Positions 1,784 through 18,324 of a stretch of 64,000 bases of DNA are shown here, piece after piece; the first letter of the stretch is position 1; each line of letters opens with the position of its first letter. The position numbers and the translations under genes are program-made. This DNA is from Escherichia coli (GTDB lineage: Bacteria; Pseudomonadota; Gammaproteobacteria; Enterobacterales; Enterobacteriaceae): assembly GCF_050920415.1 (NCBI RefSeq), contig NZ_CP169309.1. The stretch is one strand, 5' to 3'. The notes under the pieces are model-generated. The model made no database searches. It saw only the letters and a program-made list of their open reading frames with translations, and was not told the DNA's origin.

Positions 1784-2476
1784 CTAGTGATAACCACACG
1801 CGGTCATAAAATCCGTAATCGCTTTTTCTGCATCAACCAGCACCTTTTCCAGTGGCTGATTGGCGTCGATATCAACCAGTTGTGCACCACCAAAGGTTAA
1901 CTGTGGCGTTATGGCAATCTTTCTCGCCAGCGATTCCCGTTTATGGTCGGGTTTACGCGCGCAGGCAACTTCAAGGTCAACATTGAGTTTGATAACCAGA
2001 TCAGGCTTATGGCTCGCCATCCAGTGAAATGCTTTACGTTCCTGGCTTGCCAGCCATGAGACAAACCGGCCGCCTTCAACGTTAGGTGGGAACACCGTAC
2101 CATCGTAAGCGCCAGGAATTTGGTCCTGAGGATAACGATCGGTTAAGACAATCAGCCCGCGACGACGACAGGCGAGCATATGACGAAAGCGTAACAGTCG
2201 GCGGGCGACGAAAGCGGTGATCACCAGGGCCGGAACCGGACCCGGCAATTTTTTTGCCGTTTTCACTTCATTTTTTTCAATAGTCTTGTGCAGAGACTTT
2301 CCCATCAACGGTAATTTTGTCACTGCACGACCGACATTTCCGGCCTGTTTTCCTAAATGAACTCTTTCGGCAGCACCATATTTTTCGACAACGGTAATAA
2401 GATGTTCACACACCGTTGACTTGCCTGAACCATCGCTACCAATAACGGCAATTAATGGAGGTGTTATTGACTGCAT
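1784..2476 (-). CDS. yghT: P-loop NTPase, kinase-like (Walker A plus DRY motif); paralog of YghS and YghR
   Basis: 230 aa. Walker [14 protein letters not shown], then LTDRYPQD and ARKPDH motifs shared with the next two genes. No ABC signature (LSGGQ). The fold call (thymidylate/nucleoside kinase-like) is by motif only. Confidence 0.8.
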
Positions 2477-2556
2477 GAATATATCCTTAAATTTAAATAT
2501 CCATCCAAAATATTTATTTGGTTAATATGTTTTTATGAAAGCGTAATTCAGGTCAA

Positions 2557-2581
2557 TGTCACAATTAACCATTGTCACAAT
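2557..2581. promoter_or_regulatory. Direct repeat TGTCACAAT x2 in the divergent yghT/yghS promoter region, candidate operator
   Basis: TGTCACAAT at 2557-2565 and again at 2573-2581, 16 bp apart centre to centre, inside the 173 bp AT-rich divergent intergenic region. Confidence 0.3.
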
Positions 2582-2649
2582 AAGGTTGAACGGATATTCT
2601 GAGCACGGACCACGTAATATTCAATACATTATTTGCTGCCGGGTTTTTC

Positions 2650-3363
2650 GTGAATCAACGTAATATGTCAATAATTAATTCCACGCCAGTGCGTGTTATT
2701 GCCATTGTAGGATGTGATGGTTCAGGTAAATCGACCCTCACGGCAAGCCTGGTAAATGAACTGGCAGCAACAATGCCAACAGAACACATTTATCTCGGGC
2801 AATCGTCCGGGCGAATTGGCGAATGGATTTCACAGCTCCCTGTTATTGGCGCACCTTTTGGGCGTTATCTGCGAAGTAAAGCGGCACATGTGCACGAAAA
2901 GCCCTCCACACCGCCTGGCAATATTACTGCGCTGGTTATCTATCTGCTTTCCTGCTGGCGGGCGTATAAGTTTCGCAAAATGTTGTGTAAAAGCCAGCAA
3001 GGCTATCTGCTCATCACCGACCGCTACCCGCAGGTTGAAGTGCCGGGTTTTCGCTTTGATGGCCCGCAACTGGCAAAAAACACGGGCGGTAACGGCTGGA
3101 TAAAAATGTTAAGACAGCGCGAGCTCAAACTTTACCAATGGATGGCGTCTTATTTGCCCGTATTGTTGATTCGTCTTGGCATTGATGAACAAACCGCGTT
3201 TGCGCGTAAACCTGACCACCAACTGGCGGCGTTACAGGAAAAAATCGCTGTTACGCCGCAACTGACATTCAATGGTGCAAAGATCCTTGAACTGGATGGT
3301 CGGCAACCCGCCGATGAAATTCTGCAAGCGTCACTACGCGCAATTCACGCCGCGCTTTCCTGA
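2650..3363 (+). CDS. yghS: P-loop NTPase, kinase-like; paralog of YghT and YghR
   Basis: 237 aa. Walker A IAIVGCDGSGKST, ITDRYPQ, ARKPDHQLAALQEKIAVTPQLTF; collinear with YghT. Confidence 0.8.
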   Translation: MNQRNMSIINSTPVRVIAIVGCDGSGKSTLTASLVNELAATMPTEHIYLGQSSGRIGEWISQLPVIGAPFGRYLRSKAAHVHEKPSTPPGNITALVIYLLSCWRAYKFRKMLCKSQQGYLLITDRYPQVEVPGFRFDGPQLAKNTGGNGWIKMLRQRELKLYQWMASYLPVLLIRLGIDEQTAFARKPDHQLAALQEKIAVTPQLTFNGAKILELDGRQPADEILQASLRAIHAALS

Positions 3364-3393
3364 TCACCAAATGGATAGGGGATGATTTAACGA

Positions 3394-4152
3394 ATGGATG
3401 CACTACAAACACAAACTGTTAATAGTACAACCGCGCCGCAGCCCAACTACATTCCGGGGCTGATTGCGGTGGTCGGGTGTGATGGCACCGGTAAATCCAC
3501 ACTGACCACTGACCTGGTGAAATCGCTGCAACAACACTGGCAAACCGAGCGCCGCTATCTGGGGCTGCTCTCCGGCGAAGACGGCGACAAAATCAAACGG
3601 TTGCCGCTCGTTGGCGTCTGGCTGGAACGGCGACTGGCGGCCAAATCCTCGAAAACCCAAAGCATGAAAACCAAATCTCCGGCGCTATGGGCGGCGGTGA
3701 TTATGTACTGCTTCTCGCTGCGAAGAATGGCGAATCTACGCAAGGTTCAGCGACTGGCGCAAAGTGGCGTTCTGGTGGTCAGCGATCGCTTCCCGCAGGC
3801 TGAAATTTCGGGCTTTTATTATGACGGACCGGGGATTGGCATCGAGCGTGCGACCGGGAAAATCAGCATGTTTCTGGCCCAGCGCGAACGGCGTTTATAC
3901 CAAAAAATGGCGCAATACCGTCCTGAATTAATTATTCGTTTGGGGATTGATATTGATACTGCCATCTCCCGCAAGCCTGACCATGACTATGCCGAGCTGC
4001 AGGACAAAATCGGTGTCATGTCGACGATTGGCTATAACGGCACAAAAATTCTTGAGATTGATTCCAGAGCGCCCTACAGCGAAGTGCTGGAACAGGCACA
4101 GAAGGCGGTTTCTCTGGTTGCAATCGTTTCTGACCGCCGAAGTTTAACTTAA
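3394..4152 (+). CDS. yghR: P-loop NTPase, kinase-like; paralog of YghT and YghS
   Basis: 252 aa. Walker A IAVVGCDGTGKST, VSDRFPQ, SRKPDHDYAELQDKIG; third copy of the same fold. Confidence 0.8.
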   Translation: MDALQTQTVNSTTAPQPNYIPGLIAVVGCDGTGKSTLTTDLVKSLQQHWQTERRYLGLLSGEDGDKIKRLPLVGVWLERRLAAKSSKTQSMKTKSPALWAAVIMYCFSLRRMANLRKVQRLAQSGVLVVSDRFPQAEISGFYYDGPGIGIERATGKISMFLAQRERRLYQKMAQYRPELIIRLGIDIDTAISRKPDHDYAELQDKIGVMSTIGYNGTKILEIDSRAPYSEVLEQAQKAVSLVAIVSDRRSLT

Positions 4153-4197: not shown

Positions 4198-5547
4198 TTG
4201 GCGGGGTTTAACATCAAACATTGGTTTGCAGATGGCGCGTTTCGCACCATTATTCGCAATAGCGCCTGGTTAGGCTCCAGTAATGTCGTGAGCGCTTTGC
4301 TGGGTCTGTTGGCGCTCTCGTGTGCCGGTAAAGGGATGACGCCCGCCATGTTTGGCGTACTGGTGATTGTGCAATCGTACGCCAAGTCGATCAGCGATTT
4401 TATTAAGTTTCAGACATGGCAGCTGGTGGTTCAGTACGGAACGCCAGCCTTGACCAATAATAATCCGCAGCAATTTCGCAATGTCGTCTCATTTTCCTTC
4501 TCGTTGGATATCGTCAGCGGCGCGGTGGCGATTGTCGGCGGCATTGCCTTACTCCCTTTTCTTTCCCATTCATTAGGTCTGGATGACCAAAGCTTTTGGC
4601 TGGCAGCGCTGTATTGCACGCTCATTCCTTCAATGGCTTCCTCCACACCGACCGGCATTCTGCGTGCAGTAGATCGCTTCGATTTGATTGCTGTACAGCA
4701 GGCGACGAAACCTTTTCTGCGCGCAGCGGGGAGCGTCGTAGCCTGGTATTTTGATTTTGGTTTTGCGGGTTTTGTTATTGCCTGGTACGCATCGAATCTG
4801 GTTGGCGGCACCATGTACTGGTGGTTTGCCGCGCGCGAATTACGCCGCAGAAATATCCATAACGCCTTCAAATTGAATCTGTTTGAGTCTGCCCGACACA
4901 TTAAAGGCGCGTGGAGTTTTGTCTGGTCAACCAACATTGCCCACTCCATCTGGTCGGCACGTAACTCGTGCAGCACAGTGTTGGTGGGGATCGTGTTAGG
5001 ACCCGCTGCCGCCGGGTTATTTAAAATCGCCATGACATTCTTCGATGCCGCCGGAACGCCAGCGGGTTTACTGGGCAAAAGTTTTTACCCAGAGGTGATG
5101 CGTTTAGATCCGCGTACCACCAGACCGTGGTTGTTAGGCGTGAAGTCCGGTTTACTGGCGGGCGGAATCGGTATTCTGGTGGCGCTCGCGGTGTTGATCG
5201 TCGGCAAGCCGCTCATTTCGCTGGTGTTTGGCGTTAAGTATCTCGAAGCGTATGACCTGATTCAGGTGATGCTTGGCGCAATTGTGATTTCGATGCTGGG
5301 CTTCCCACAGGAGTCATTGCTATTGATGGCGGGAAAACAGCGCGCTTTTCTCGTGGCGCAAACCATCGCCTCAATCGGCTACATCGTATTGCTGTTCATG
5401 TTCTGTCATCTGTTTGGCGTGCTGGGGGCTGCATTTGCTTACTTCGGTGGGCAATGTCTGGATGTGGTGCTCTCGTTAATTCCAACCTTAAAGGCATTTT
5501 TTCAGCGCCATTCCTTGCTTTATAACGCAGCCGGAGAGAAATCCTGA
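4198..5547 (+). CDS. yghQ: Multi-pass inner-membrane protein, MOP/polysaccharide-biosynthesis (Wzx/MurJ-like) flippase family
   Basis: 449 aa, highly hydrophobic throughout with many predicted TM segments. The track start is a TTG; the true start may be the internal ATG at about 4333. The stop overlaps the next ORF's start (TGATG). Confidence 0.7.
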   Translation: MAGFNIKHWFADGAFRTIIRNSAWLGSSNVVSALLGLLALSCAGKGMTPAMFGVLVIVQSYAKSISDFIKFQTWQLVVQYGTPALTNNNPQQFRNVVSFSFSLDIVSGAVAIVGGIALLPFLSHSLGLDDQSFWLAALYCTLIPSMASSTPTGILRAVDRFDLIAVQQATKPFLRAAGSVVAWYFDFGFAGFVIAWYASNLVGGTMYWWFAARELRRRNIHNAFKLNLFESARHIKGAWSFVWSTNIAHSIWSARNSCSTVLVGIVLGPAAAGLFKIAMTFFDAAGTPAGLLGKSFYPEVMRLDPRTTRPWLLGVKSGLLAGGIGILVALAVLIVGKPLISLVFGVKYLEAYDLIQVMLGAIVISMLGFPQESLLLMAGKQRAFLVAQTIASIGYIVLLFMFCHLFGVLGAAFAYFGGQCLDVVLSLIPTLKAFFQRHSLLYNAAGEKS

Positions 5548-5993
5548 TGATGAGAAAATATTTCCCGCTTGAGGCGAGCGAGCGTCTATTTATTGCAGTT
5601 GAAGAAGATGATGTCGTTGATGCGCAGGTCAGTTTACCGCCGACTATCGCAACAGGTTGTACCACCGAAATCATTCATGATAATTACGCGTTATGCCTGC
5701 AATTCTGGCTGAATGGCGTTGATCGTCAGGAATTACTGCGTTTAATCCACAAACAAGCCAAAGGCGAGGGGCTTACGGCTGACGAGCGTAAACAGTTTAA
5801 ATATATGCGGGCGCGTTATAAGCATCTACGTTTTGCCCAACGGTTGTATTTAAAAAAGCATCAGGCCGGATTTTTATTTGGCAAAACGACCGTTTTTCTT
5901 GGACGTTTTCAGGACGGCTTTCGTAACGGTAAGAAAAATATTGTGTCGTTTTACGGCAACCTTTTACGGATTTATTTAAGCTCTCCGGTCTAG
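5547..5993 (+). CDS. Hypothetical protein, no recognisable motif
   Basis: 148 aa ORF whose ATG overlaps the yghQ stop (translational coupling), same strand as neighbours. Basic, soluble-looking. Confidence 0.5.
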   Translation: MMRKYFPLEASERLFIAVEEDDVVDAQVSLPPTIATGCTTEIIHDNYALCLQFWLNGVDRQELLRLIHKQAKGEGLTADERKQFKYMRARYKHLRFAQRLYLKKHQAGFLFGKTTVFLGRFQDGFRNGKKNIVSFYGNLLRIYLSSPV

Positions 5994-6371
5994 TTGTTGG
6001 TGAACTATTCATTACGCCATAGCCAGTTAGAAAGCGTAAGCGGTTTTATTGCCTATCGGCAAAAGCAAATGCACCTCCTGAAAGAGATTATTGCCAAACC
6101 ACGGCTAACTGGCAGGGAATTTCATGATGTACGAAAAATAATCAGCCAGCAGGTTTCTTATTACGACACCCTAAGATCGCTTGATCCTGAAAATAAAGAA
6201 GCGTTACAGATTTCCCGCTTCCTCGCCGCCATTAATGGCCTGATGGGGGATAAACACGACGACATGGTGGCGGATGATATGGAAAACCGCCAGTCGTATG
6301 ATGCACCGATGGCGCTGGATAGCGATATTCGTCAGCGCTTAGAACTGCTGATTTCGCGTTTTCCGCTATAA
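5994..6371 (+). CDS. Hypothetical protein, start uncertain
   Basis: 125 aa ORF immediately after the previous stop. The track start is TTG; the first in-frame ATG is at about 6069. No motif recognised. Confidence 0.35.
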   Translation: MLVNYSLRHSQLESVSGFIAYRQKQMHLLKEIIAKPRLTGREFHDVRKIISQQVSYYDTLRSLDPENKEALQISRFLAAINGLMGDKHDDMVADDMENRQSYDAPMALDSDIRQRLELLISRFPL

Positions 6372-6379
6372 CCGGAGCA

Positions 6380-6943
6380 ATGATGTCATCTCGTTTGATT
6401 ATTGCGCTGATTATCATGCTCTTAGCCCCGGGTGTGCAGGCGCACAATTTCGTCACTGGTAAAACGGTTACCCCTGTTTATATCCAGGAAGGCGGCGAGC
6501 TGCTTCTGAATAGCGACGACGAAATTCACTACCAAAAGTGGAACAGCACACAGCTGGCGGGAAAAGTCCGCATTATTCAGTATATCGCCGGGCGTAAGTC
6601 GGCGAAGAAAAAGAACTCACTGTTAATTAAAGCGGTTGAAGCGGCAAACTTTCCGCAGGATCGTTTTCAGCCCACCACCATTGTGAACACCGATGATGCC
6701 ATCTTTGGTACTGGCTATTTTGTCGTTGGCAAAATCGAAAAAAATAAACGCCGCTATCCGTGGGCGCAATTCGTTATTGACGGCAATGGACAGGGACGCG
6801 TTGTCTGGCGGTTGCCGGAGCAGAGTTCAACCATTCTGGTGCTGAATAAAGCCGGGCAAATTCAGTGGGCAAAGGACGGCAGCCTGACGCCGGAAGAGGT
6901 AGATCATGTCATTGCGCTGGCGCAGAAGCTGATCAATGAATAA
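6380..6943 (+). CDS. Secreted/periplasmic protein with cleavable signal peptide, function unknown
   Basis: 187 aa. N-terminus MMSSRLIIALIIMLLAPGVQA|HN is a typical Sec signal peptide. It lies directly upstream of the LptF/LptG-like pair. Any YtfJ-like or LptA/LptC-like assignment is unverified. Confidence 0.6.
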   Translation: MMSSRLIIALIIMLLAPGVQAHNFVTGKTVTPVYIQEGGELLLNSDDEIHYQKWNSTQLAGKVRIIQYIAGRKSAKKKNSLLIKAVEAANFPQDRFQPTTIVNTDDAIFGTGYFVVGKIEKNKRRYPWAQFVIDGNGQGRVVWRLPEQSSTILVLNKAGQIQWAKDGSLTPEEVDHVIALAQKLINE

Positions 6944-6973: not shown

Positions 6974-8044
6974 ATGAAGCTGGTTGAACACTACATCATG
7001 CGTGGTACGCGCCGTCTGGTGCTGATTATCGTCGGTTTTCTGATCTTTATTTTCGCCAGCTACTCCGCACAGCGTTATCTGACCGAAGCGGCAAATGGGA
7101 CATTAGCTCTTGATGTTGTGCTGGATATTGTTTTCTACAAGGTGCTGATTGCACTGGAGATGTTGTTACCTGTTGGACTGTATGTGTCAGTTGGCGTGAC
7201 GCTAGGGCAGATGTATACCGACTCGGAAATTACCGCTATTTCTGCGGCGGGGGGGAGTCCGGGACGCTTGTACAAAGCCGTTCTTTATCTGGCGATACCG
7301 CTAAGTATTTTTGTCACCCTTCTGTCGATGTATGGTCGTCCGTGGGCTTATGCGCAGATTTATCAACTGGAGCAACAGTCGCAGTCGGAGCTGGATGTTC
7401 GCCAGTTGCGGGCAAAGAAATTTAACACTAACGATAACGGACGAATGATCCTTTCGCAGACGGTTGATCAGGATAATAATCGCCTGACTGACGTGCTGAT
7501 TTATACTTCTACTGCCAATCGAACCCGTATTTTCCGCGCCCGTTCGGTTGATGTAGTTGACCCATCACCCGAGAAACCGACCGTTATGTTGCATAACGGG
7601 ACCGCCTATCTTCTCGATCATCAGGGGCGTGACGACAACGAACAGATCTACCGTAATCTGCAATTGCATCTGAATCCGCTGGATCAAAGCCCTAACGTCA
7701 AACGCAAAGCAAAATCGGTCACGGAGCTGGCGCGCTCCGCCTTTCCTGCCGATCATGCCGAACTGCAATGGCGACAAAGCCGTGGCCTGACAGCATTGTT
7801 GATGGCGCTGCTGGCCATTTCATTAAGTCGGGTAAAACCGCGGCAAGGGCGATTTTCAACGTTATTGCCACTGACGTTGCTGTTTGTTGCCATTTTTTAT
7901 GGCGGCGACGTCTGCCGTACGCTGGTGGCTAACGGCGCGATTCCCCTCATTCCTGGTTTGTGGTTAGTACCCGGACTCATGCTAATGGGCCTGCTGATGC
8001 TGGTCGCACGCGACTTCTCTTTGCTGCAGAAATTTTCCCGATGA
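6974..8044 (+). CDS. LptF/LptG-family (YjgP/YjgQ) permease, paralog 1
   Basis: 356 aa. N-terminal TM helix, then a large periplasmic domain and C-terminal TM bundle, matching the LptF/LptG topology. Stop overlaps the next start (ATGA). Confidence 0.8.
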   Translation: MKLVEHYIMRGTRRLVLIIVGFLIFIFASYSAQRYLTEAANGTLALDVVLDIVFYKVLIALEMLLPVGLYVSVGVTLGQMYTDSEITAISAAGGSPGRLYKAVLYLAIPLSIFVTLLSMYGRPWAYAQIYQLEQQSQSELDVRQLRAKKFNTNDNGRMILSQTVDQDNNRLTDVLIYTSTANRTRIFRARSVDVVDPSPEKPTVMLHNGTAYLLDHQGRDDNEQIYRNLQLHLNPLDQSPNVKRKAKSVTELARSAFPADHAELQWRQSRGLTALLMALLAISLSRVKPRQGRFSTLLPLTLLFVAIFYGGDVCRTLVANGAIPLIPGLWLVPGLMLMGLLMLVARDFSLLQKFSR

Positions 8045-9120
8045 ATGTTTTCAGTCGCTATTTAATTCGTCATCTCTTTCTCGGTTTTGCCGCCGCCGCA
8101 GGGCTATTGCTGCCGCTCTTTACCACCTTCAACCTGATTAACGAACTGGATGATGTCAGCCCGGGTGGTTATCGCTGGACTCAGGCGGTGCTGGTGGTGC
8201 TGATGACCTTACCGCGCACACTGGTCGAACTTTCGCCGTTTATCGCCTTATTGGGAGGGATTGTCGGCCTGGGGCAGTTATCGAAAAACAGTGAGCTTAC
8301 CGCCATTCGCAGCACGGGGTTTTCTATCTTCCGTATTGCACTGGTGGCGCTGGTTGCCGGGATATTGTGGACTGTTTCATTAGGCACGATAGATGAGTGG
8401 GTGGCGTCGCCATTGCAGCAACAGGCGCTGCAAATCAAATCGACTGCCACTGCGTTGGGGGAGGACGATGACATTACCGGCAATATGCTGTGGGCCAGGC
8501 GTGGTAATGAATTTGTGACGGTGAAATCGCTGAACGAGCAGGGCCAGCCGGTGGGCGTGGAGATATTTCATTACCGCGACGATCTCTCGCTCGAATCCTA
8601 CATTTATGCACGCAGTGCCACCATTGAAGACGACAAAACGTGGATCCTGCATGGTGTGAATCATAAAAAATGGCTGAATGGCAAAGAAACGCTGGAAACA
8701 TCTGATAATCTTGCCTGGCAATCGGCCTTCACCAGTATGAATCTTGAAGAGTTATCGATGCCGGGAAATACTTTTTCTGTCCGTCAACTTAATCATTACA
8801 TCCATTATTTGCAGGAAACCGGGCAACCCAGCAGCGAATACCGCTTTGCACTGTGGGAAAAACTGGGACAACCCATCTTGACCCTTGCGATGATTTTGCT
8901 GGCTGTGCCGTTTACCTTTAGTGCCCCGCGTTCGCCTGGGATGGGTAGCCGTCTCGCTGTAGGCGTCATCGTGGGGTTACTCACCTGGAGCAGCTATCAA
9001 ATCATGGTCAATCTGGGATTGCTATTTGCGTTGAGCGCACCTGTTACCGCGCTCGGTTTACCGATAGCGTTTATGCTGGTGGCGTTGAGCCTGGTGTATT
9101 GGTATGACAGTCAACATTAA
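8041..9120 (+). CDS. LptF/LptG-family (YjgP/YjgQ) permease, paralog 2
   Basis: Start taken at the ATG at 8041 (MNVFSRYLIRHLFLGF...), not the longer track ORF from 7960. LGQLSKNSELTAIRSTGFS parallels LptG LGMLAQRSELVVMQASGFT. Periplasmic middle domain and C-terminal TMs. Confidence 0.8.
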   Translation: MNVFSRYLIRHLFLGFAAAAGLLLPLFTTFNLINELDDVSPGGYRWTQAVLVVLMTLPRTLVELSPFIALLGGIVGLGQLSKNSELTAIRSTGFSIFRIALVALVAGILWTVSLGTIDEWVASPLQQQALQIKSTATALGEDDDITGNMLWARRGNEFVTVKSLNEQGQPVGVEIFHYRDDLSLESYIYARSATIEDDKTWILHGVNHKKWLNGKETLETSDNLAWQSAFTSMNLEELSMPGNTFSVRQLNHYIHYLQETGQPSSEYRFALWEKLGQPILTLAMILLAVPFTFSAPRSPGMGSRLAVGVIVGLLTWSSYQIMVNLGLLFALSAPVTALGLPIAFMLVALSLVYWYDSQH

Positions 9121-9154: not shown

Positions 9155-10327
9155 TTACTGCTTCAGAGTAGCAAATGCCTGAATGATGGCATCGATTTGC
9201 TCACGAGTGTGGGCAGCGTTTACGCTACAGCGCAGCAGCGTGATGCCTGCAGGCGCGGCAGGTGGCAGGATAAGATTCACATAAACGCCCAGCGAAATAA
9301 GCTCGCGCCAGATGCGTAAACCTTCCTCTTTCGAACCGATTATTACTGGCACTACCGGGCTAATATGTGAACTTAACTCGTAACCCAGTTTTTGCAGACC
9401 GTCATACAGATGGCTGGCGTTATCCATCAGCTTTTGCCGCAACTCTGGTTGTGAGGCAATGGTTCTTAACGACGAGCGCACGGTCGCAATGCAGGACGGA
9501 GAAGGAGAGGCGGTAAAAATATACGGGCGGCTGCCGTAGCGCAGCACTTCCATCGCTTCCGAACCGACAGCAAAACCGCCAATCGAGGCCAGACTTTTAC
9601 TGAAAGTACCAACGATAATATCCACATCATCTTCAACGCCAACGGCTTCAGCCAGTCCGCGCCCCGTTGCGCCTAACACGCCAAACGAATGCGCTTCATC
9701 GACAATCAAATAACCACCGAGACGACGTTTGATATCAACAATTTCCGCCAGCGGCGCAACGTCACCGAGCATACTGTAGATGCCTTCAACGATGATAATC
9801 GCCTCTTTTGCCCGTTCACCGAGGCGAACCATGCGCCGTTCCAGATCTTTAGCATCGTTATGGCGGAAACGAATAATTTCCGCTCCACCGAGAGAACAGG
9901 CGTCATAAATACTGGCGTGGCTATCGGCATCCAGTAACACCACGGCGTTATGGTCGGCAAGTGCGCTGATGACACCTAAATTAGCGGTATAACCGGTTGA
10001 AAAAACGATAGCGGTAGGGCGATTGAAAAACTCGGCAATCTCTTTCTCTAACGCCAGATGTGGCGCATAGCTGCCATTAGCCATACGAGAACCGGTAGTG
10101 CCGGTGCCTTGTGCCGCTAATGCTGCCTGACCTTCGGTGATGGCATCATGATTGAAAGTTAAACCGAGATAATTATTAGTCCCGGCCAGAATCACTTTTT
10201 TATTGCCGATACGGCCTTCAGTGGCGGAGTACACTTCATCAATACAGGTACCAAACGGCGTTAATCCGTTGTCACTAAATTGCAGTCGCTCGCCAGCAAG
10301 GCGCGCATATTTATCGTATAGCCCCAT
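9155..10327 (-). CDS. PLP-dependent alpha-oxoamine synthase (serine palmitoyltransferase / KBL / BioF family)
   Basis: 390 aa. Motifs DEAHSFGVLGATGRG and GTFSKSLASIGGF (PLP lysine) are hallmarks of alpha-oxoamine synthases. Start overlaps the ACP stop by 1 nt. Confidence 0.85.
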   Translation of the reverse strand: MGLYDKYARLAGERLQFSDNGLTPFGTCIDEVYSATEGRIGNKKVILAGTNNYLGLTFNHDAITEGQAALAAQGTGTTGSRMANGSYAPHLALEKEIAEFFNRPTAIVFSTGYTANLGVISALADHNAVVLLDADSHASIYDACSLGGAEIIRFRHNDAKDLERRMVRLGERAKEAIIIVEGIYSMLGDVAPLAEIVDIKRRLGGYLIVDEAHSFGVLGATGRGLAEAVGVEDDVDIIVGTFSKSLASIGGFAVGSEAMEVLRYGSRPYIFTASPSPSCIATVRSSLRTIASQPELRQKLMDNASHLYDGLQKLGYELSSHISPVVPVIIGSKEEGLRIWRELISLGVYVNLILPPAAPAGITLLRCSVNAAHTREQIDAIIQAFATLKQ

Positions 10328-10575
10328 TATTTATTCTCCAGCCATGGAAGTAGAGTTTCCATTAATTGCGCAGGGGTTTTGACATCCAGCAGAATATTAA
10401 TAGGAATGGAAATATCGAATCTGTCTTCCAGCATCATTAAGAGATCCATCACTTTGATCGACTCCAGGCCAAGATCGTTGACGAGATCGCTGTCGGGCTT
10501 AATTTCCACACCGTTTTCGACCAAATCCTGTAAACAGGAAAGGATGTAATCCATTACTATTTCACGATTTACCAT
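10327..10575 (-). CDS. Acyl carrier protein (phosphopantetheine-binding)
   Basis: 82 aa acidic protein. DLGLESIKVMDL is a candidate 4'-phosphopantetheine attachment site. Lies between the synthase and the reductase. Confidence 0.75.
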   Translation of the reverse strand: MVNREIVMDYILSCLQDLVENGVEIKPDSDLVNDLGLESIKVMDLLMMLEDRFDISIPINILLDVKTPAQLMETLLPWLENK

Positions 10576-10606
10576 AGAAACGTTAACACACCTTTAAACA
10601 AGACAA

Positions 10607-11521
10607 TCAAAATAGCCCGCTGCGTAATGCGTGTTCCAGGCTAATCCCGGGAAACCAATTAATATCTTCAGAAATACGGTTATTACTTGCTGACCAGTCG
10701 GCGTGGGTTAATTCACGGATTTTCGAGCGGGTCAGCATAGGTTCTTTACCTGCCAGGCGACTCAACGCGGTACTGATATCCGCAAGGCAGGTGAGTACCG
10801 ACAGAGGAATACCAACCATTCGAACGGAACCGCAACGGGCGTCGGCGGCAAGTTGCTGTACGCGTTGCCAGTCATAGCCGCCGGCGACGCCATCGCATAA
10901 TTCATAGGTTTGCGTTTGTACAGTTTCGGCGCTTAACCACTGCCCCACGGCTTGCGCGAAATCGGTGACGTGCAGGAAAGAGAGCTGTGTATCTGGCGCA
11001 CCAAGTCGTGGCAGCAGGCCGCGCAGCATCCAGCCAAACAGCGGTTTTAACTCTTTATCGCCGGGACCATACACGGCTGTCGGGCGAAAAATGCCCAGCG
11101 TAATTTCGTCAGCCATTGCGGTCAGTCGTTGTTCGGCGACGTGTTTGGAATTTGCGTACCAGGAGAGTTCGGGATGGCGCGCCGCCAGCGAAGAGATAAA
11201 CAGAAAACGTTGGCAAAAGCCGCTCTCTTTTGCCGCTTGCATCAGGCGCAGGCTGCCGTCAACGTTACAGCGGGTAAAAATCTCTTCTTTGTGTCCGCGC
11301 ACTTGCCCGGCGCAATGGACCACCGCGCTGGCTCCGGCAACCAGTTCGCTAAGCGAATGTGTATCTTCCAGCGAACCGCGCACCCAGATGAGATTATCAT
11401 TGACGTGAGCGCGGGCAGTACGCGTCAATGCGCGAACGTGAAAGCCGCGGGCGAGCAGGTTATCGATAATATATTTACCGATAAACCCGGTAGCGCCCGT
11501 CACCGCGACAGTTTGATTCAT
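10607..11521 (-). CDS. NAD(P)-dependent epimerase/dehydratase-family reductase (extended SDR)
   Basis: 304 aa. N-terminal Rossmann motif VAVTGATGFIG and catalytic YANSK (YxxxK). Start overlaps the ligase stop (ATGA). Confidence 0.8.
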   Translation of the reverse strand: MNQTVAVTGATGFIGKYIIDNLLARGFHVRALTRTARAHVNDNLIWVRGSLEDTHSLSELVAGASAVVHCAGQVRGHKEEIFTRCNVDGSLRLMQAAKESGFCQRFLFISSLAARHPELSWYANSKHVAEQRLTAMADEITLGIFRPTAVYGPGDKELKPLFGWMLRGLLPRLGAPDTQLSFLHVTDFAQAVGQWLSAETVQTQTYELCDGVAGGYDWQRVQQLAADARCGSVRMVGIPLSVLTCLADISTALSRLAGKEPMLTRSKIRELTHADWSASNNRISEDINWFPGISLEHALRSGLF

Positions 11522-13236
11522 GCCATGGATTCCTGCACATGAAGGCTTGCAGCATAACGTTTTTTCGCTTCCGCACGGGCAGGCTTGCCGGAGGACGTTC
11601 GGGGAATACTGTGGGGCGGCAACAGATCGATAGCCGCTGTTACGCCAAATTCGCTTTGGATCCGTGCTGCCAGTGCGTGGATAAGCTGCCCACGACGTTC
11701 TTCGTCGCTGATCCTACACTGGATCTGCAAAATGATTTTTTCCTGGGCGGTAACAAAAGCAATCGCATCGCCAGAATGAATTTCCGGTTCCTGTTCCGCA
11801 ATATATTCAATATCCTGCGGCCAGATATTACGGCCACGAATAATAATCAGATCTTTAATGCGCCCGGTGACATACAGATAACCATCCAGCAGATAACCGA
11901 GGTCGCCGGTATCTAACCAGCCCGTCGCGGCAATCTCGTCTTGCGAAACCTGGTCGCCAAAGTAACCGCTCATCAGGCTGGGGCCGGAGATGCAAATATG
12001 GCCTACCACACGTTCCGCGACCGGCATACCTGCTTCATTGCGGATTTCAATGCCATGTTCCGGCAACGCTTTACCGCAGTTGACGAAAGTCGATACGGCG
12101 CGTGTTTCAGCACCCGGCGCGACGGCTTTGCCCTGATATTCAAGGATGTCGCGATCCACTTCGTTAACCACAACCCCGGAGGCTTCATCAGAGAAGCTGA
12201 CAGCCAGCGCATTTTCTGCCAGTCCGTAGCACGGCATGAAAGTTTTATCGTCAAAGTTAACCTGACGGAAACATTCAGCAAATTGGTGGAGTTGTTCTGC
12301 GGAGATGGGTTCTGCGCCAATACCAGCGACGCGCCAGCACGAGAGATCCAGTTCAGCGAGATCTTTTTCATTCACGCGGCGCTGACACAATTCATAGCCA
12401 AACGGCGGCGCGACGGAAACTGTGCCACGATTTTTACTGATCAATTTAAGCCATTGCAGCGGACGCATGGCAAAATCCTGAGTGCGCAAATAATCTACTG
12501 AGAGCTGCGTGGCGACGGGGGTCAGGAGAAAGCCGACCAGTCCCATATCATGGTAGAAAGGCAGCCAGGAGACGCAGCGGTCGCCAGGGCGTAATTTAAT
12601 GCCATCGTGGCTTATAGCACGTAGATTAGCCATCACTTCGCGATGGGTGATAATGACGCCACGGGGAAAACGGGTGCTGCCGGAGGTGTACTGGAGGTAG
12701 GCGATATCGTTCGGAACTGGACGCTGGAGTACAACATCGGCTTCCGGTAATGCCTTAAACCAGGCGTGGCTTAAAACATGTAATTCGGGGTTGTTATGCG
12801 TAGCAGCATTGACCAGTGGCAACCACTCATCACCAGTGATAATGGCTGCGGGCTGGCAACTAGCCAGTAAACCTTGCAGTTTAGCGCTCCAGGAATCCCG
12901 CTGACCGACGCCCATTGGAATCGCTAACGGGACGGCGACTAAGCCGGCATACTGGCAGGCAAAAAAAGCCTCTACAAACCCGCTACTCGTTTCGGCAATC
13001 AGCGCCACGCGATCGCCTTTTTTCAGATTTAGTGATAACAACCGCTTCGCACCAGCTTCGGCACACGCTTTTAACGTCTGATATTCCAGTTGATCTTCAA
13101 GTTGGCAACGTCTGTCATAAAAATTCATTCCGGCGCTACTCAGAGCGGCGTAGTCCAAAGCATCAACCAGCGTTGGAAAATCGGCATAGCGCATAGGTAG
13201 GGAATGCGTAAAGATGTTATTAGACATATACACCAC
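11518..13236 (-). CDS. Fatty-acyl-AMP ligase / acyl-ACP synthetase (adenylate-forming enzyme)
   Basis: 572 aa. AMP-binding motifs YTSGSTRFPRGV, DTGDLGY and GRIKDLIIIRGRNIWPQDIE. The exact start (Met1, Met4 or Met15) is uncertain. Confidence 0.85.
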   Translation of the reverse strand: MVYMSNNIFTHSLPMRYADFPTLVDALDYAALSSAGMNFYDRRCQLEDQLEYQTLKACAEAGAKRLLSLNLKKGDRVALIAETSSGFVEAFFACQYAGLVAVPLAIPMGVGQRDSWSAKLQGLLASCQPAAIITGDEWLPLVNAATHNNPELHVLSHAWFKALPEADVVLQRPVPNDIAYLQYTSGSTRFPRGVIITHREVMANLRAISHDGIKLRPGDRCVSWLPFYHDMGLVGFLLTPVATQLSVDYLRTQDFAMRPLQWLKLISKNRGTVSVAPPFGYELCQRRVNEKDLAELDLSCWRVAGIGAEPISAEQLHQFAECFRQVNFDDKTFMPCYGLAENALAVSFSDEASGVVVNEVDRDILEYQGKAVAPGAETRAVSTFVNCGKALPEHGIEIRNEAGMPVAERVVGHICISGPSLMSGYFGDQVSQDEIAATGWLDTGDLGYLLDGYLYVTGRIKDLIIIRGRNIWPQDIEYIAEQEPEIHSGDAIAFVTAQEKIILQIQCRISDEERRGQLIHALAARIQSEFGVTAAIDLLPPHSIPRTSSGKPARAEAKKRYAASLHVQESMA

Positions 13237-13598
13237 GAAAAAAATTGGATATCAGAAATAAAATGACAATAATGCGGTGGATTATATAGGCATAAAAGAT
13301 AAATGAGATAGTATTTTCATCGGTGCGATATTGAACATTGATTTAAATAATAGGTTTGGCTTTGTTGTTTTTATTGTGAATTATATTTAATTTATGAATA
13401 TATTAAGAAGAAGCCTTGTTTGGTTGCCTTAAATCGACAAAAGGCATTGAGGCGCTTCTGTGTAGTCTCTGACCTTATCTTAATTATTAATAAATACTAT
13501 TTATTCTTTGTTTGTATTCTTTGGGTTGATTATTAAGATGCCGTTCGTTGCTGTTGCAATCTGTTTGTCACCGTTAATTATTTGTTATCCACAGAGAT
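13237..13598. promoter_or_regulatory. AT-rich divergent promoter region between the ligase operon and yghO
   Basis: 362 bp non-coding stretch with long A/T tracts (for example TTTAAATAATAGG, TTATATTTAATTTATGAATATATTAAG). No ORF. Candidate nucleoid-protein (H-NS-like) silenced promoter. Confidence 0.4.
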
Positions 13599-14741
13599 AT
13601 GGAATGCGATCTGCTGATGATTAAAATTGAAAAAGTAATTAATAAAAATGACCTTAAGGCATTTATCGCTTTTCCGTCATCACTTTATCCCGATGATCCA
13701 AACTGGATACCCCCTTTGTTCATTGAACGCAGCGAGCATTTGTCGGCGAAGAATCCGGGGACGGACCATATTATCTGGCAGGCGTGGGTAGCAAAAAAAG
13801 CGGGGCAGATAGTCGGGCGGATTACCGCGCAAATCGATACCTTGCACCGCGAGCGTTACGGTGACGATACCGGTCATTTCGGCATGATTGACGCCATTGA
13901 TGATCCGCAGGTTTTTGCCGCGTTGTTTGGCGCAGCGGAAGCGTGGTTGAAGTCACAAGGTGCAAGTAAGATCAGCGGGCCTTTCAGCCTGAATATCAAT
14001 CAGGAAAGCGGATTACTGATTGAAGGTTTCGACACTCCGCCCTGTGCGATGATGCCGCACGGTAAACCGTGGTATGCCGCGCATATTGAACAATTGGGTT
14101 ATCACAAAGGTATTGATTTACTGGCGTGGTGGATGCAACGAACCGATCTCACTTTCTCTCCGGCGCTAAAAAAACTGATGGATCAGGTGCGCAAAAAGGT
14201 GACCATTCGCTGCATCAAGCGCCAGCGGTTTGCCGAAGAGATGCTGATCCTGCGTGAGATTTTCAACTCTGGCTGGCAGCACAACTGGGGATTTGTGCCG
14301 TTTACCGAACATGAATTCGCTACCATGGGCGATCAACTAAAGTATCTGGTACCGGACGATATGATCTACGTCGCCGAGATTGATTCTGCTCCCTGCGCGT
14401 TTATAGTCGGCTTGCCGAACATCAACGAGGCGATTGCCGATCTGAACGGAGCGCTCTTTCCCTTCGGCTGGGCAAAATTGCTGTGGCGCTTAAAAGTCAG
14501 CGGTGTGCGAACTGCGCGAGTGCCGCTGATGGGCGTGCGTGACGAGTATCAGTTCAGCCGCATCGGCCCGGTGATTGCGCTGTTATTGATTGAAGCCTTA
14601 CGCGATCCGTTTGCTCGCCGGAAGATCGATGCGCTGGAAATGTCATGGATCCTCGAAACCAATACAGGCATGAATAACATGCTGGAACGCATTGGAGCGG
14701 AGCCGTACAAGCGTTACCGATTGTATGAAAAGCAGATTTGA
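13599..14741 (+). CDS. yghO: YghO-family protein, probably acyl-CoA N-acyltransferase fold (GNAT-like)
   Basis: 380 aa intact ORF. I recognise the name from its position next to glcC. The GNAT-like assignment is from memory of annotations, not from a motif I can point to. Confidence 0.65.
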   Translation: MECDLLMIKIEKVINKNDLKAFIAFPSSLYPDDPNWIPPLFIERSEHLSAKNPGTDHIIWQAWVAKKAGQIVGRITAQIDTLHRERYGDDTGHFGMIDAIDDPQVFAALFGAAEAWLKSQGASKISGPFSLNINQESGLLIEGFDTPPCAMMPHGKPWYAAHIEQLGYHKGIDLLAWWMQRTDLTFSPALKKLMDQVRKKVTIRCIKRQRFAEEMLILREIFNSGWQHNWGFVPFTEHEFATMGDQLKYLVPDDMIYVAEIDSAPCAFIVGLPNINEAIADLNGALFPFGWAKLLWRLKVSGVRTARVPLMGVRDEYQFSRIGPVIALLLIEALRDPFARRKIDALEMSWILETNTGMNNMLERIGAEPYKRYRLYEKQI

Positions 14742-14747
14742 TGGCAG

Positions 14748-15512
14748 TCACCCCTGCTTCATCTCCAGCGGCACCGCCGAGCGAATCAAATGGTGGCCTT
14801 CCAGCTCGATATCGTGGAGATTCTTTTTCACGGTCCGCACATGATCGCGTGCTGCGCGCTGGGCGACGTGTGGCAGCCGCTGCAACACCGCGTTGTAGAT
14901 CCGCGCATGCTGGCGATCGATCTGCTTTTTTTGCTGTGGTCGATGGTAGAGATTATTTACGCTGGCAAACACTGAATTAAACATCAGGTCGGTCAATGAT
15001 TGCAGTGTAAACACCAGCACCTGATTGTGGGAAGCCTGACAAATGGCGAGATGGAAAGCGTGATCCAGTTGTGCATGTTCGATCAGCGAAATCTCTTTGT
15101 TGTTCTCACTGGCGGCGAGCATTTTTTCATAACAGCGGGTTATCACAACAAAATCAGCCTGGGTTCCCAGCGTTGCCGCCAGCCTTGCCGATTCGCCCTC
15201 CAGCAATGCGCGAACGTCGAGCAGATCGTACAGCGTTCGCGGCTGCGTACTGAACAGATGGATCAGCGGGCTGGTGTCCTGCACCCGATTGAGCCGTGCG
15301 ACACGAGAATCGCGCCCCTGCGCCGTTTCAATAATCCCACGCCCGCGCAGCACGGTCAGCCCTTCACGCAGTGCGGAGCGTGAGAAGCCGAGCTTTTCAC
15401 ACAGTCGACGTTCCGAGGGAAGCGGCTGACCGACCTTCAGCACGCCGTCGATAATTAACCGTTCGATACTCTCTGCAACCACTTCGCAAATAGGGCGACG
15501 TTCATCTTTCAT
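14748..15512 (-). CDS. glcC: GntR/FadR-family transcriptional activator of the glc operon
   Basis: Start placed at the internal Met (MKDERRPICEVVAESIERLIIDGVLKVGQPLPSERRL...), giving 254 aa. N-terminal winged-HTH, C-terminal FCD domain. Divergent from glcD. Confidence 0.9.
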   Translation of the reverse strand: MKDERRPICEVVAESIERLIIDGVLKVGQPLPSERRLCEKLGFSRSALREGLTVLRGRGIIETAQGRDSRVARLNRVQDTSPLIHLFSTQPRTLYDLLDVRALLEGESARLAATLGTQADFVVITRCYEKMLAASENNKEISLIEHAQLDHAFHLAICQASHNQVLVFTLQSLTDLMFNSVFASVNNLYHRPQQKKQIDRQHARIYNAVLQRLPHVAQRAARDHVRTVKKNLHDIELEGHHLIRSAVPLEMKQG

Positions 15513-15762: not shown

Positions 15763-17262
15763 ATGAGCATCTTGTACGAAGAGCGTCTTGATGGCGCTTT
15801 ACCCGATGTCGACCGCACATCGGTACTGATGGCACTGCGTGAGCATGTCCCTGGACTGGAGATCCTGCATACCGATGAGGAGATCATTCCTTACGAGTGT
15901 GACGGGTTGAGCGCGTATCGTACGCGTCCATTACTGGTTGTTCTGCCTAAGCAGATGGAACAGGTGACGGCGATTCTCGCTGTCTGCCACCGTTTGCATG
16001 TACCGGTAGTGACCCGTGGCGCAGGCACCGGACTTTCTGGCGGTGCGCTGCCGCTGGAAAAAGGTGTGTTGTTGGTGATGGCGCGCTTTAAAGAAATCCT
16101 CGACATTAACCCCGTTGGTCGCCGTGCGCGTGTGCAGCCGGGCGTGCGTAACCTGGCGATCTCCCAGGCTGTTGCGTCGCATAATCTCTATTACGCGCCG
16201 GATCCTTCCTCACAAATCGCCTGTTCCATTGGCGGCAACGTGGCGGAAAACGCCGGGGGCGTCCACTGTCTGAAATATGGTCTGACCGTACATAACCTGC
16301 TGAAAATTGAAGTGCAAACGCTGGATGGCGAGGCACTAACGCTGGGATCGGACGCGCTGGATTCACCCGGTTTTGACCTACTGGCGCTGTTCACCGGATC
16401 GGAAGGCATGCTCGGCGTGACCACCGAAGTGACGGTAAAACTGCTGCCGAAGCCCCCTGTGGCACGAGTTCTGTTAGCCAGCTTTGACTCGGTAGAAAAA
16501 GCCGGACTTGCAGTTGGTGACATCATCGCTAATGGCATTATCCCCGGCGGGCTGGAGATGATGGATAACCTGTCGATCCGCGCGGCGGAAGATTTTATTC
16601 ATGCCGGTTATCCCGTCGATGCCGAAGCAATTTTATTGTGTGAGTTGGACGGCGTGGAATCTGATGTACAGGAAGACTGCGAGCGAGTTAACGGCATCTT
16701 ACTGAAAGCGGGCGCGACTGACGTCCGTCTGGCGCAGGATGAAGCGGAGCGCGTGCGTTTCTGGGCCGGCCGCAAAAATGCTTTTCCGGCGGTAGGACGT
16801 ATCTCCCCGGATTACTACTGCATGGACGGCACCATCCCGCGCCGCGCGTTGCCTGGCGTACTGGAAGGCATTGCCCGTTTATCGCAGCAATATGATTTAC
16901 GCGTTGCCAACGTCTTTCATGCCGGAGACGGCAATATGCACCCGTTAATCCTTTTCGATGCCAACGAACCCGGTGAATTCGCCCGTGCGGAAGAATTGGG
17001 TGGGAAGATCCTTGAACTCTGTGTTGAAGTAGGCGGCAGTATCAGTGGGGAACATGGCATCGGGCGCGAAAAAATCAATCAGATGTGCGCCCAGTTCAAC
17101 AGTGATGAAATTACTACCTTTCATGCAGTCAAGGCGGCGTTTGATCCTGATGGTTTGCTGAACCCTGGGAAAAACATCCCCACACTGCACCGCTGCGCTG
17201 AATTTGGTGCCATGCACGTGCATCACGGTCATTTACCTTTCCCTGAACTGGAGCGTTTCTGA
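15763..17262 (+). CDS. glcD: Glycolate oxidase subunit, FAD-linked
   Basis: 499 aa. FAD-binding oxidase family (GAGTGLSGGA). Stop overlaps the glcE start (TGATG). Confidence 0.9.
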   Translation: MSILYEERLDGALPDVDRTSVLMALREHVPGLEILHTDEEIIPYECDGLSAYRTRPLLVVLPKQMEQVTAILAVCHRLHVPVVTRGAGTGLSGGALPLEKGVLLVMARFKEILDINPVGRRARVQPGVRNLAISQAVASHNLYYAPDPSSQIACSIGGNVAENAGGVHCLKYGLTVHNLLKIEVQTLDGEALTLGSDALDSPGFDLLALFTGSEGMLGVTTEVTVKLLPKPPVARVLLASFDSVEKAGLAVGDIIANGIIPGGLEMMDNLSIRAAEDFIHAGYPVDAEAILLCELDGVESDVQEDCERVNGILLKAGATDVRLAQDEAERVRFWAGRKNAFPAVGRISPDYYCMDGTIPRRALPGVLEGIARLSQQYDLRVANVFHAGDGNMHPLILFDANEPGEFARAEELGGKILELCVEVGGSISGEHGIGREKINQMCAQFNSDEITTFHAVKAAFDPDGLLNPGKNIPTLHRCAEFGAMHVHHGHLPFPELERF

Positions 17263-18314
17263 TGCTACGCGAGTGTGATTACAGCCAGGTACTGCTGGAG
17301 CAGGTGAATCAGGCAATTAGCGATAAAACGCCGCTGGCGATTCAGGGAAGCAATAGCAAAGCCTTTTTAGGTCGTCCTGTCATCGGGCAAACGCTGGATG
17401 TGCGTTGCCATCGTGGCATTGTTAATTACGACCCGACCGAGCTGGTGATTACCGCGCGTGCCGGAACGCCGCTGGTGGCGATTGAAGCGGCGCTGGAGAG
17501 CGCGGGGCAAATGCTCCCCTGCGAGCCACCGCATTATGGTGACGAAGCCACCTGGGGCGGTATGGTCGCCTGCGGGCTGGCGGGGCCGCGTCGCCCGTGG
17601 AGCGGTTCGGTTCGCGATTTTGTCCTCGGCACGCGCATCATTACCGGCACTGGAAAACATCTGCGCTTTGGTGGCGAAGTGATGAAAAACGTTGCCGGAT
17701 ACGATCTCTCGCGGTTAATGGCCGGAAGCTACGGCTGTCTTGGCGTGCTCACTGAAATCTCGATGAAAGTGTTGCCGCGACCGCGCGCCACACTGAGCTT
17801 GCGTCGGGAAATAAGCCTGCAAGAAGCCATGAGTGAAATCGCCCAGTGGCAACTCCAGCCATTACCCATTAGTGGCTTATGTTACTTCGACAATGCGTTG
17901 TGGATCCGCCTTGAAGGCGGTGAAGGATCGGTAAAAGCAGCACGTGAACTGCTGGGTGGCGAAGAGGTTGCGGGTCAGTTCTGGCAGCAATTGCGTGAAC
18001 AACAACTGCCGTTCTTCTCATTACCGGGCACTTTATGGCGTATTTCCTTACCCACCGATGCGCCGATGATGGATTTACCCGGCGAGCAACTGATCGACTG
18101 GGGCGGCGCGTTACGTTGGCTGAAATCGACAGCCGATGACAATCAAATCCATCGCATTGCCCGCAACGCAGGCGGTCATGCGACCCGCTTTAGTGCCGGA
18201 GATGGTGGCTTTGCCCCGCTACCGGCTCCTTTATTCCGCTATCACCAGCAGCTTAAACAGCAGCTCGACCCTTGCGGCGTGTTTAACCCCGGTCGTATGT
18301 ACGCGGAACTTTAA
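17262..18314 (+). CDS. glcE: Glycolate oxidase subunit, FAD-binding
   Basis: 350 aa, position and sequence match GlcE. Confidence 0.9.
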   Translation: MLRECDYSQVLLEQVNQAISDKTPLAIQGSNSKAFLGRPVIGQTLDVRCHRGIVNYDPTELVITARAGTPLVAIEAALESAGQMLPCEPPHYGDEATWGGMVACGLAGPRRPWSGSVRDFVLGTRIITGTGKHLRFGGEVMKNVAGYDLSRLMAGSYGCLGVLTEISMKVLPRPRATLSLRREISLQEAMSEIAQWQLQPLPISGLCYFDNALWIRLEGGEGSVKAARELLGGEEVAGQFWQQLREQQLPFFSLPGTLWRISLPTDAPMMDLPGEQLIDWGGALRWLKSTADDNQIHRIARNAGGHATRFSAGDGGFAPLPAPLFRYHQQLKQQLDPCGVFNPGRMYAEL

Positions 18315-18324
18315 GGAGCAGACT

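Follow-up and report, generated by a model that had tools for sequence, protein, structure and literature searches.

Does Escherichia coli possess the genes of a sphingolipid pathway, what would such a pathway make, and is it still of use to the organism? Reviews continue to give the species just three major membrane lipids. The question is raised by a locus in a 64,000-nucleotide stretch of E. coli DNA (contig NZ_CP169309.1; the window, in what follows). We conclude with high confidence that E. coli here carries its own copy of the dihydroceramide pathway of the Caulobacter type ('Rhodobacteria'). All five open reading frames claimed in a preliminary description of this DNA were found in place. 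The genes for spt, an acyl carrier protein (ACP), an SDR reductase and a fatty acyl-AMP ligase do form a tight block on the minus strand (positions 9155-13227), with yghO as divergent neighbour on the plus strand (13617-14741). The features are:

9155..10327, minus strand: spt, 390 aa, serine palmitoyltransferase, a PLP-dependent alpha-oxoamine synthase
10327..10575, minus strand: acpR, 82 aa, dedicated acyl carrier protein, overlapping spt by 1 nt
10607..11521, minus strand: gene for an extended SDR of the epi/cerR type, 304 aa, predicted 3-keto reductase, after a 31-nt spacer
11518..13227, minus strand: aasR, 569 aa, fatty acyl-AMP ligase acting as acyl-AcpR synthetase, with a 4-nt overlap with the reductase gene
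13228..13616, no strand: divergent aasR-yghO intergenic region, presumed shared control region with a putative regulatory role
13617..14741 (ORF from 13599), plus strand: yghO, 374 aa, candidate tandem-GNAT N-acyltransferase, homolog of the bacterial ceramide synthase (aca/bCerS)

The mechanically derived aasR reading frame extends to a GTG at 13236, while the RefSeq start is the ATG at 13227. For yghO, a start at 13617 is more likely than one at 13599, because the homologs are 374 aa long. G+C falls to its local minimum around the intergenic region between the two genes, at 0.41 for the 1-kb composition window 13001-14000, an interval that also takes in parts of both genes. The region contains one weak sigma-70-like match, at 13246-13273. 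Overall, promoter and terminator matches were no more frequent than in shuffled sequence, and the scan therefore gives no regulatory insight.

The motifs quoted in the preliminary description were all recovered, namely GTFSKS (Lys244), DEAHSFGVLGATGRG, GATGFIG, YANSK (Tyr122/Lys126) and YTSGSTRFPRGV (from residue 180), and their positions are kept in 64 to 79 related loci. Among testable loci outside E. coli, 51 of 64 keep the four genes colinear as aasR-reductase-acp-spt, with the SDR gene between aasR and acpR; acpR is the immediate upstream neighbour of spt in 77 of 79 loci, and the control flanks glcC and glcD co-occur with spt in none of the 79. The recurrence of this four-gene arrangement is far beyond chance. 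The resemblance to the Caulobacter ceramide locus, proposed earlier, is borne out by the order of CC_1162-CC_1165.

The nature of the product turns first on which alpha-oxoamine synthase Spt is. If Spt were merely SPT-like, the locus could yield a different amino-ketone or amino-alcohol, such as a CAI-1-like signal, a cysteate sulfonolipid-type base or a deoxy-base derived from alanine or glycine. The members of this enzyme family are closely related and all score against Spt, cysteate acyltransferase at 201 bits and KBL at 204. In addition, the position of Arg378 in the Sphingomonas paucimobilis enzyme (SpSPT) is occupied by Leu354 in E. coli Spt and is non-basic in all 79 relatives, a replacement that could, speculatively, affect substrate handling. 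Against such a product stands the fact that only one curated model reaches its cut-off, the serine palmitoyltransferase equivalog NCBIfam NF047599 (599.6 bits, cut-off 500). The models for BioF (334.8, cut-off 426), KBL (297.8, cut-off 460), CqsA (221.9, cut-off 428) and ALAS (218.9, cut-off 338) all fail. The nearest solved structures, matching over the full length, are those of Sphingomonas SPT (PDB 2jg2, 2x8u), with 375 bits for S. paucimobilis and 371 for S. wittichii, about 170 bits above all other PDB relatives (KBL 204, BioF 177). The PLP lysine and the catalytic residues of these enzymes all have equivalents in E. coli Spt: His137, Asp210, His213, Lys244 and Arg366 correspond to His159, Asp231, His234, Lys265 and Arg390 of SpSPT and are invariant across all 79 loci. 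The cut-offs of the curated models and the gaps in PDB scores settle the question in favour of an Spt over BioF, KBL or CqsA, as had been proposed. Moreover, SPT_Ec of strain BL21, which is 98.7% identical to Spt and has been tested experimentally, gave a 3-oxo-sphinganine-like product from L-[14C]serine, and the conserved neighbours of spt include a reductase and the bCerS-like YghO. We consider a different product very unlikely. The gene arrangement in Sphingomonas differs, aasR being distant from acpR-spt, whereas the genes adjoin in a single block in E. coli.

The other genes of the block are consistent with the same pathway. ACP models match AcpR with E values of 6e-9, yet below every cut-off, and we therefore regard it as a specialised ACP. 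The modifiable serine on which the earlier proposal depended is present: Ser39, within the motif GLESIK, is conserved in 77 of 77 homologs, and the protein is 100% identical to BL21 AcpR (ECD_02853), which carries beta-alanine/phosphopantetheine. AasR passes the fatty acyl-AMP ligase model NCBIfam NF006624 (871 bits, cut-off 600), its adenylation motif YTSGSTRFPRGV is conserved among related loci, and it is 96.3% identical to AasR_Ec of BL21. In the SDR, the GxxGxxG glycines G9, G12 and G15 are conserved in 64 of 64 sequences, and Tyr122 and Lys126 of YxxxK in 64 of 65. Its PDB relatives comprise NAD-dependent epimerases, NDUFA9 and ketoreductases, and the protein is predicted to be the 3-keto reductase.

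YghO had been described as a GNAT-like acyltransferase that could supply the N-acylation step. On sequence, this assignment finds no backing in Pfam: searches with YghO, by sequence and by profile, returned no Pfam, NCBIfam or PDB match, and PF00583, tried member by member, matches just 2 of 32 members of the family, E. coli YghO not among them. Since nothing significant came from the PDB, the fold was predicted by model. The AF2 model (pLDDT 90.4) has tandem GNATs as its top Foldseek matches (E 1e-15), so that the fold upholds the description, as does family membership. Of the 79 loci, 46 have a yghO homolog no more than 10 kb from spt, and in 40 it is divergent from aasR and adjoins it. In a Caulobacter metagenome-assembled genome (MAG), a protein encoded beside an LptG2 homolog is 43% identical to YghO over the full length (E 3e-109); its gene has the place of CC_1154 beside CC_1155 in the published Caulobacter locus. 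These comparisons support YghO as a homolog of the Caulobacter N-acyltransferase CC_1154. The gene (ECD_02850 in BL21) has also been named aca, for N-acyltransferase (PMC9386255).

Four reactions can be proposed. AasR would adenylate a long-chain fatty acid and load it onto the phosphopantetheine arm of AcpR; Spt would condense the acyl-AcpR with L-serine to give 3-oxo-sphinganine and CO2; the SDR would reduce the 3-keto group; and YghO, the candidate tandem-GNAT acyltransferase, would N-acylate the base, leading to dihydroceramide. Which of 3-keto reduction and N-acylation comes first is disputed in the literature. The first two steps have been shown for the near-identical proteins of BL21(DE3) when overexpressed. 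For the last two the grounds are homology, fold and the conservation of the gene neighbourhood, and sphinganine- and ceramide-like TLC spots suggest that the E. coli reductase and YghO may be active.

Much of this had been described before. Padilla-Gómez et al. (2022; PMC9386255) reported the five-gene cluster, yghO included, in E. coli BL21(DE3). In that work, overexpression of AasR_Ec, AcpR_Ec and SPT_Ec led to 3-oxo-sphinganine in vivo, extracts containing SPT_Ec converted L-[14C]serine into the product mentioned above, and AcpR_Ec was labelled in vivo with beta-alanine. The lipid profile of BL21(DE3) with the empty vector served as baseline, without the new compounds, even though this strain carries the locus; that speaks against production by the unmodified strain. 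The BL21(DE3) genes ECD_02850-ECD_02854 (yghO/aca, aasR, epi, acpR, spt) are the locus of the window in another strain: genes, order, flanks and RefSeq product names are alike, the differences are allelic only, and the window proteins are 96-100% identical to ECD_02851-02854. The RefSeq annotation already calls the gene spt. The E. coli sphingolipid cluster is thus known: it has been described, partly tested in the laboratory and annotated. Of the earlier suggestion of a cryptic sphingolipid pathway, the word "cryptic" is fair, as we found no account of a native lipid; the idea itself is not new, being preceded by PMC9386255 and RefSeq.

The comparison with Caulobacter places the locus in a wider family. 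C. crescentus CC_1162-CC_1165 together with CC_1154 (spt, acpR, epi/cerR, aasR and aca/bCerS) share with E. coli the five enzymes and the order aasR-epi-acpR-spt, and the literature regards the two clusters as homologous. The sequence used for comparison was that of the MAG, labelled 'uncultured Caulobacter sp.' and not C. crescentus itself, to which Spt is 55% identical, AcpR 42%, the reductase 34% (to the protein in the equivalent position), AasR 43% and YghO, as above, 43%. Both loci further contain a flippase-like gene and LptF/G paralogs (CC_1166 and lptF2/lptG2 in Caulobacter). They differ in that yghO is directly divergent from aasR in E. coli, whereas its counterpart in Caulobacter lies about 7 kb away. 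They also differ in the genes beyond the biosynthetic block, which in the window are:

1784-2476, minus strand: yghT, P-loop kinase-like, paralog of yghS and yghR
2650-3363, plus strand: yghS, P-loop kinase-like, paralog of yghT and yghR
3394-4152, plus strand: yghR, P-loop kinase-like, paralog of yghT and yghS
4198..5547, plus strand: yghQ, MOP-family flippase-like membrane protein (the MOP flippase match is weak)
5547..6371, plus strand: conserved hypothetical gene, 274 aa in relatives, with a nonsense codon at 5991-5993
6383..6943, plus strand: gene for a YtfJ-family protein (TIGR01626, 209 bits)
6974..8044, plus strand: lptF2, paralog of the LPS exporter permease LptF (TIGR04407, 323 bits)
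8041..9120, plus strand: lptG2, paralog of the LPS exporter permease LptG (TIGR04408, 304 bits)

The cut-offs of TIGR04407 and TIGR04408 are both reached, so that a second, diverged LptF/LptG pair adjoins spt. The lptF2 product matches E. coli LptF (6mhu_F) with only 94 bits, which makes it a distant paralog. The two genes stand together beside spt in 34 of 79 loci, and no lptB and no lptC-like gene is annotated within the locus. Caulobacter LptF2 and LptG2 (CCNA_01214/01213) have been implicated in sphingolipid export, in a preprint whose figure counts the locus of E. coli UTI89 among sphingolipid operons. YghQ is 28% identical (E 7e-22) to the product of a Caulobacter MAG ORF that lies upstream of aasR, where CC_1166, the putative flippase, is found in the published locus. 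By analogy with Caulobacter, transport of the lipid toward the outer membrane is probably the task of LptF2/LptG2 and YghQ.

The published Caulobacter locus has its head-group genes at CC_1158-CC_1161; the interval between spt and lptF2 is their place in the MAG. When all MAG ORFs were compared with the window by tblastn, those of this interval had no homolog there, in a search in which the MAG LptF2 and LptG2 also failed to reach the E 1e-3 threshold. What the E. coli locus has instead are yghR, yghS and yghT, the 274-aa gene and the YtfJ-family gene. The matches of YghR, YghS and YghT to the dTMP-kinase model are weak and below the cut-off, and the AF2 model of YghS (pLDDT 85.9) resembles the dTMP/deoxynucleoside kinase fold (TM 0.55-0.67). 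Of 13 Enterobacterales loci, 11-12 have the genes of these proteins together with spt, a linkage that recurs in Luteibacter, Dyella and one betaproteobacterial MAG; we found no literature linking them to sphingolipids. The 274-aa gene accompanies spt in Enterobacterales, Luteibacter and Dyella. A family search with the protein gave no match, and the window allele carries W149* relative to strain MFDS1022581. Linkage of the YtfJ-family gene to spt is confined to Enterobacterales (10 of 13 loci), and the hydrophobic N-terminus and A-x-A motif of its product suggest a signal peptide. It is conceivable, though we hold it to be doubtful, that Enterobacterales, E. coli included, make something other than plain ceramide: a sphingolipid that is modified, perhaps by phosphorylation, and exported to the outer membrane, with YghR, YghS and YghT as candidate head-group enzymes unrelated to the Caulobacter head-group (CPG) genes. 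Their partners may then be YghQ, LptF2/LptG2, the 274-aa protein and the YtfJ-family protein. The native product and its phenotype are known for Caulobacter, while for E. coli the evidence so far comes from overexpression in BL21(DE3).

Of 5426 complete E. coli genomes, 4067 have the full locus. The lineage of the window is a diverged Escherichia; compared with most E. coli, its nucleotide identity is about 96% for the locus and about 95% for glcDEF. Horizontal acquisition is a notion without support: the G+C content is typical save for the intergenic dip, the divergence does not exceed that of glcDEF, and the context is common to other Enterobacterales.

A last question is whether the genes, intact as they are, could be an evolutionary relic that E. 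coli leaves unused, the lipid being made in no natural condition. We found no report in the literature of a sphingolipid in unmodified E. coli or Enterobacterales, and the locus appears to be silent or weakly expressed in laboratory culture. About a quarter of the complete genomes are without the full locus; K-12 is viable after an IS5-associated deletion that removed the whole biosynthetic block and left yghQ truncated by IS5; and the neighbouring 274-aa gene of the window is interrupted by its nonsense codon. A relic is nevertheless hard to reconcile with the dN/dS values, which lie at 0.02-0.14 in each of the 12 genes tested (the references being a diverged Escherichia genome, about 90% identical in nucleotide sequence, and also Hafnia for those genes that allowed an estimate of dS), or with the full conservation of the catalytic residues. 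In five other Enterobacterales loci, as in E. coli, pitB adjoins the locus, with 60-88% protein identity across the order, and the proteins are active on expression. We give the relic explanation very little credence; the locus appears to be kept by selection in most E. coli.

The case for a ceramide route in E. coli has already been made in the literature, and the present finding is therefore a confirmation, not a discovery. It means that most E. coli, K-12 excepted, carry a complete, selectively maintained ceramide route. It also calls for caution in the choice of strain, since the common expression host BL21(DE3) carries the locus and has the pathway, whereas K-12 does not.

The four tightly coupled genes and divergent yghO that the preliminary description had read as a sphingolipid-type module were all found in the ORF map at 9155-14741, and every motif it quoted is present in the window proteins. 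The four genes share one strand with operon-like packing, and the region lies between glcC and a block of ygh genes.

9155-10327, minus strand: spt, serine palmitoyltransferase gene
10327-10575, minus strand: acyl carrier protein (ACP) gene acpR, 82 aa, overlapping spt by 1 nt
10607-11521, minus strand: extended SDR, 304 aa, between the ACP and ligase genes
11518-13227, minus strand: aasR, fatty acyl-AMP ligase, overlapping the SDR gene by 4 nt
13617-14741, plus strand: yghO, divergent from the four-gene block
14748-15512, minus strand: glcC, flanking gene

The start of aasR is ambiguous: the ORF begins with GTG at 13236, and the RefSeq start is the ATG at 13227 in the near-identical strain and a downstream Met (562 aa) in BL21(DE3).

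Spt scores 599.6 bits against NF047599, the NCBI serine palmitoyltransferase equivalog (cut-off 500), and falls under the cut-offs of the models for BioF (334.8 versus 426), KBL (297.8 versus 460), CqsA (221.9 versus 428) and ALAS. Its best solved structures are the SPTs of S. paucimobilis (375 bits) and S. wittichii (371), followed by S. multivorum SPT (267), KBL (204), BioF (177) and CqsA (124). In an alignment to the S. paucimobilis enzyme (SpSPT, PDB 2jg2), His137, Asp210, His213, Lys244 and Arg366 correspond to SpSPT His159, Asp231, His234, Lys265 and Arg390, and all five are invariant among 79 related loci. By model cut-offs, structure scores and residues, the synthase thus groups with Spt, as had been claimed, and not with BioF/KBL, the placement named beforehand as refuting that claim. 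SpSPT Arg378, which we take to be implicated in serine carboxylate binding, is replaced by Leu354, a position occupied by L, I, V, M or F in 79/79 related Spt sequences. If that role is correct, the acyl-ACP-using Spt clade may position its substrate otherwise than the Sphingomonas enzyme. In one 794-aa representative protein from the comparison (P0126), the Spt domain (residues 399-785) is fused to an N-terminal half of unknown nature.

The ligase, ACP and SDR also fit their predicted pathway roles. The ligase reaches 871 bits against the fatty acyl-AMP ligase model (cut-off 600); the ACP has the modifiable serine expected of it, Ser39, kept in 77/77 homologs; and the SDR keeps GxxGxxG and Tyr122/Lys126, its solved relatives including NDUFA9 and ketoreductases. 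In one gammaproteobacterial symbiont locus (L047, 3301-4233), AcpR is duplicated in tandem upstream of spt.

YghO has no sequence match in Pfam, NCBIfam or PDB. An AlphaFold2 model built from a family alignment of 32 sequences from related loci (mean pLDDT 90.4) was compared with PDB by Foldseek, and tandem-GNAT proteins came out on top (E about 1e-15, TM 0.57-0.72): a clavulanate-pathway tandem GNAT, glucosamine N-acetyltransferase, MAB_4324, MshD and Eis. The GNAT-like nature suggested earlier is therefore borne out as a predicted tandem-GNAT fold. A protein adjoining an LptG paralog in a metagenome-assembled 'uncultured Caulobacter sp.' genome (Caulobacter MAG) also matches the whole of YghO at 43% identity (E 3e-109); in C. 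crescentus, the matching slot beside CC_1155 (lptG2) is occupied by CC_1154.

The locus extends upstream as far as yghT, and also holds a YtfJ-family gene and the flippase-like yghQ.

1784-4152: yghT, yghS and yghR, three paralogous P-loop proteins, in RefSeq 'dTMP kinase' or 'ATP-binding protein'
5547-6371, plus strand: conserved hypothetical gene of unknown family, 274 aa, between yghQ and the YtfJ-family gene
6974-9120: lptF2/lptG2

With a score of only about 94 bits to E. coli LptF, LptF2 is by sequence distantly paralogous to the housekeeping protein. The two genes owe their RefSeq names lptF/lptG to passing the TIGR equivalog cut-offs, and these names probably over-annotate what are paralogs belonging to sphingolipid loci. 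The 274-aa gene carries a premature stop in the window (W149*, 5991-5993) and is intact in BL21(DE3) and in the otherwise almost identical MFDS1022581. YghR/S/T score far under the dTMP kinase cut-off; the YghS model has a dTMP/deoxynucleoside-kinase-like fold, with lower confidence at residues 50-90 (pLDDT about 60). Since their genes accompany spt in several orders (Enterobacterales, Luteibacter, Dyella and one betaproteobacterium), a role as lipid or head-group kinases is possible for them. At the slot of the putative flippase CC_1166, the Caulobacter MAG has an ORF to which YghQ is 28% identical, and the MAG ORFs between spt and lptF2, the published head-group gene position, have no homolog in the window. 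There are hints, a lead and not a result, that head-group chemistry differs from that of Caulobacter.

A scan with the Spt profile, one genome per species, gave 80 loci, which were searched by tblastn with all window proteins; the counts below are for the 79 outside E. coli. The loci come from Enterobacterales, Nitrospira, Geobacter, nitrosomonads, Xanthomonadales and Caulobacter. An ACP adjoins spt in 77/79, and aasR-SDR-acp-spt is colinear in 51 of the 64 with enough upstream DNA. YghO homologs lie within 10 kb of spt in 46/79 (divergent and adjoining aasR in 40), LptF/G paralogs occur in 34/79, and the flanking controls glcC or glcD in 0/79. Against a diverged Escherichia genome, dN/dS was 0.02-0.14 in all 12 locus genes tested, so purifying selection acts on the cluster.

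The E. coli cluster is not new to the literature. It was described by Padilla-Gómez et al. 2022 (PMC9386255), who gave the sphingolipid genes of BL21(DE3) as ECD_02851 aasR, ECD_02852 epi, ECD_02853 acpR, ECD_02854 spt and 'yghO ECD_02850' aca, and noted that no organisms other than Caulobacter and E. coli have all five in a cluster. In their work AcpR_Ec was labelled with beta-alanine, SPT_Ec extracts were active with L-[14C]serine, co-expression of AasR_Ec, AcpR_Ec and SPT_Ec yielded 3-oxo-sphinganine, and ECD_02852 and ECD_02850 were proposed to lie behind the observed sphinganine- and ceramide-like spots. The window proteins are 100% (AcpR), 98.7% (Spt), 96.4% (SDR) and 96.3% (AasR) identical to those of BL21(DE3), and RefSeq labels the site 'spt: serine palmitoyltransferase'. 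A 2026 preprint includes E. coli UTI89 operons in a figure of sphingolipid loci with LptF/G homologs. Among 5426 complete E. coli genomes, 4067 have at least 80% of the region. K-12 lacks the cluster through an IS5-associated deletion that begins midway through yghQ and ends at the start of yghO: in MG1655 (L002, 5738-9103), IS5 stands between truncated yghQ and yghO in place of about 8 kb holding the 274-aa gene, the YtfJ-family gene, lptF2, lptG2, spt, acpR, SDR and aasR. K-12 is thus unable to make the lipid, whereas the full locus is present in BL21(DE3). The window strain is a diverged Escherichia lineage: compared with most complete E. coli genomes, its identity is about 96% in the sphingolipid locus (9155-14741) and only about 94.8% in glcDEF (15763-19500), and MFDS1022581 alone matches at about 100%.

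Literature searches turned up no sphingolipid reported from unmodified E. coli, and the lipid profile of BL21(DE3) with empty vector, a strain whose retrieved sequence carries the locus, served as the baseline without the new compounds (PMC9386255). 'Cryptic', as the pathway had been called, is therefore a fair term. The order of reduction and N-acylation in the bacterial ceramide pathway is disputed. The observation is confirmed and its sphingolipid interpretation supported; the residual interest lies in native expression and the identity of the mature lipid.
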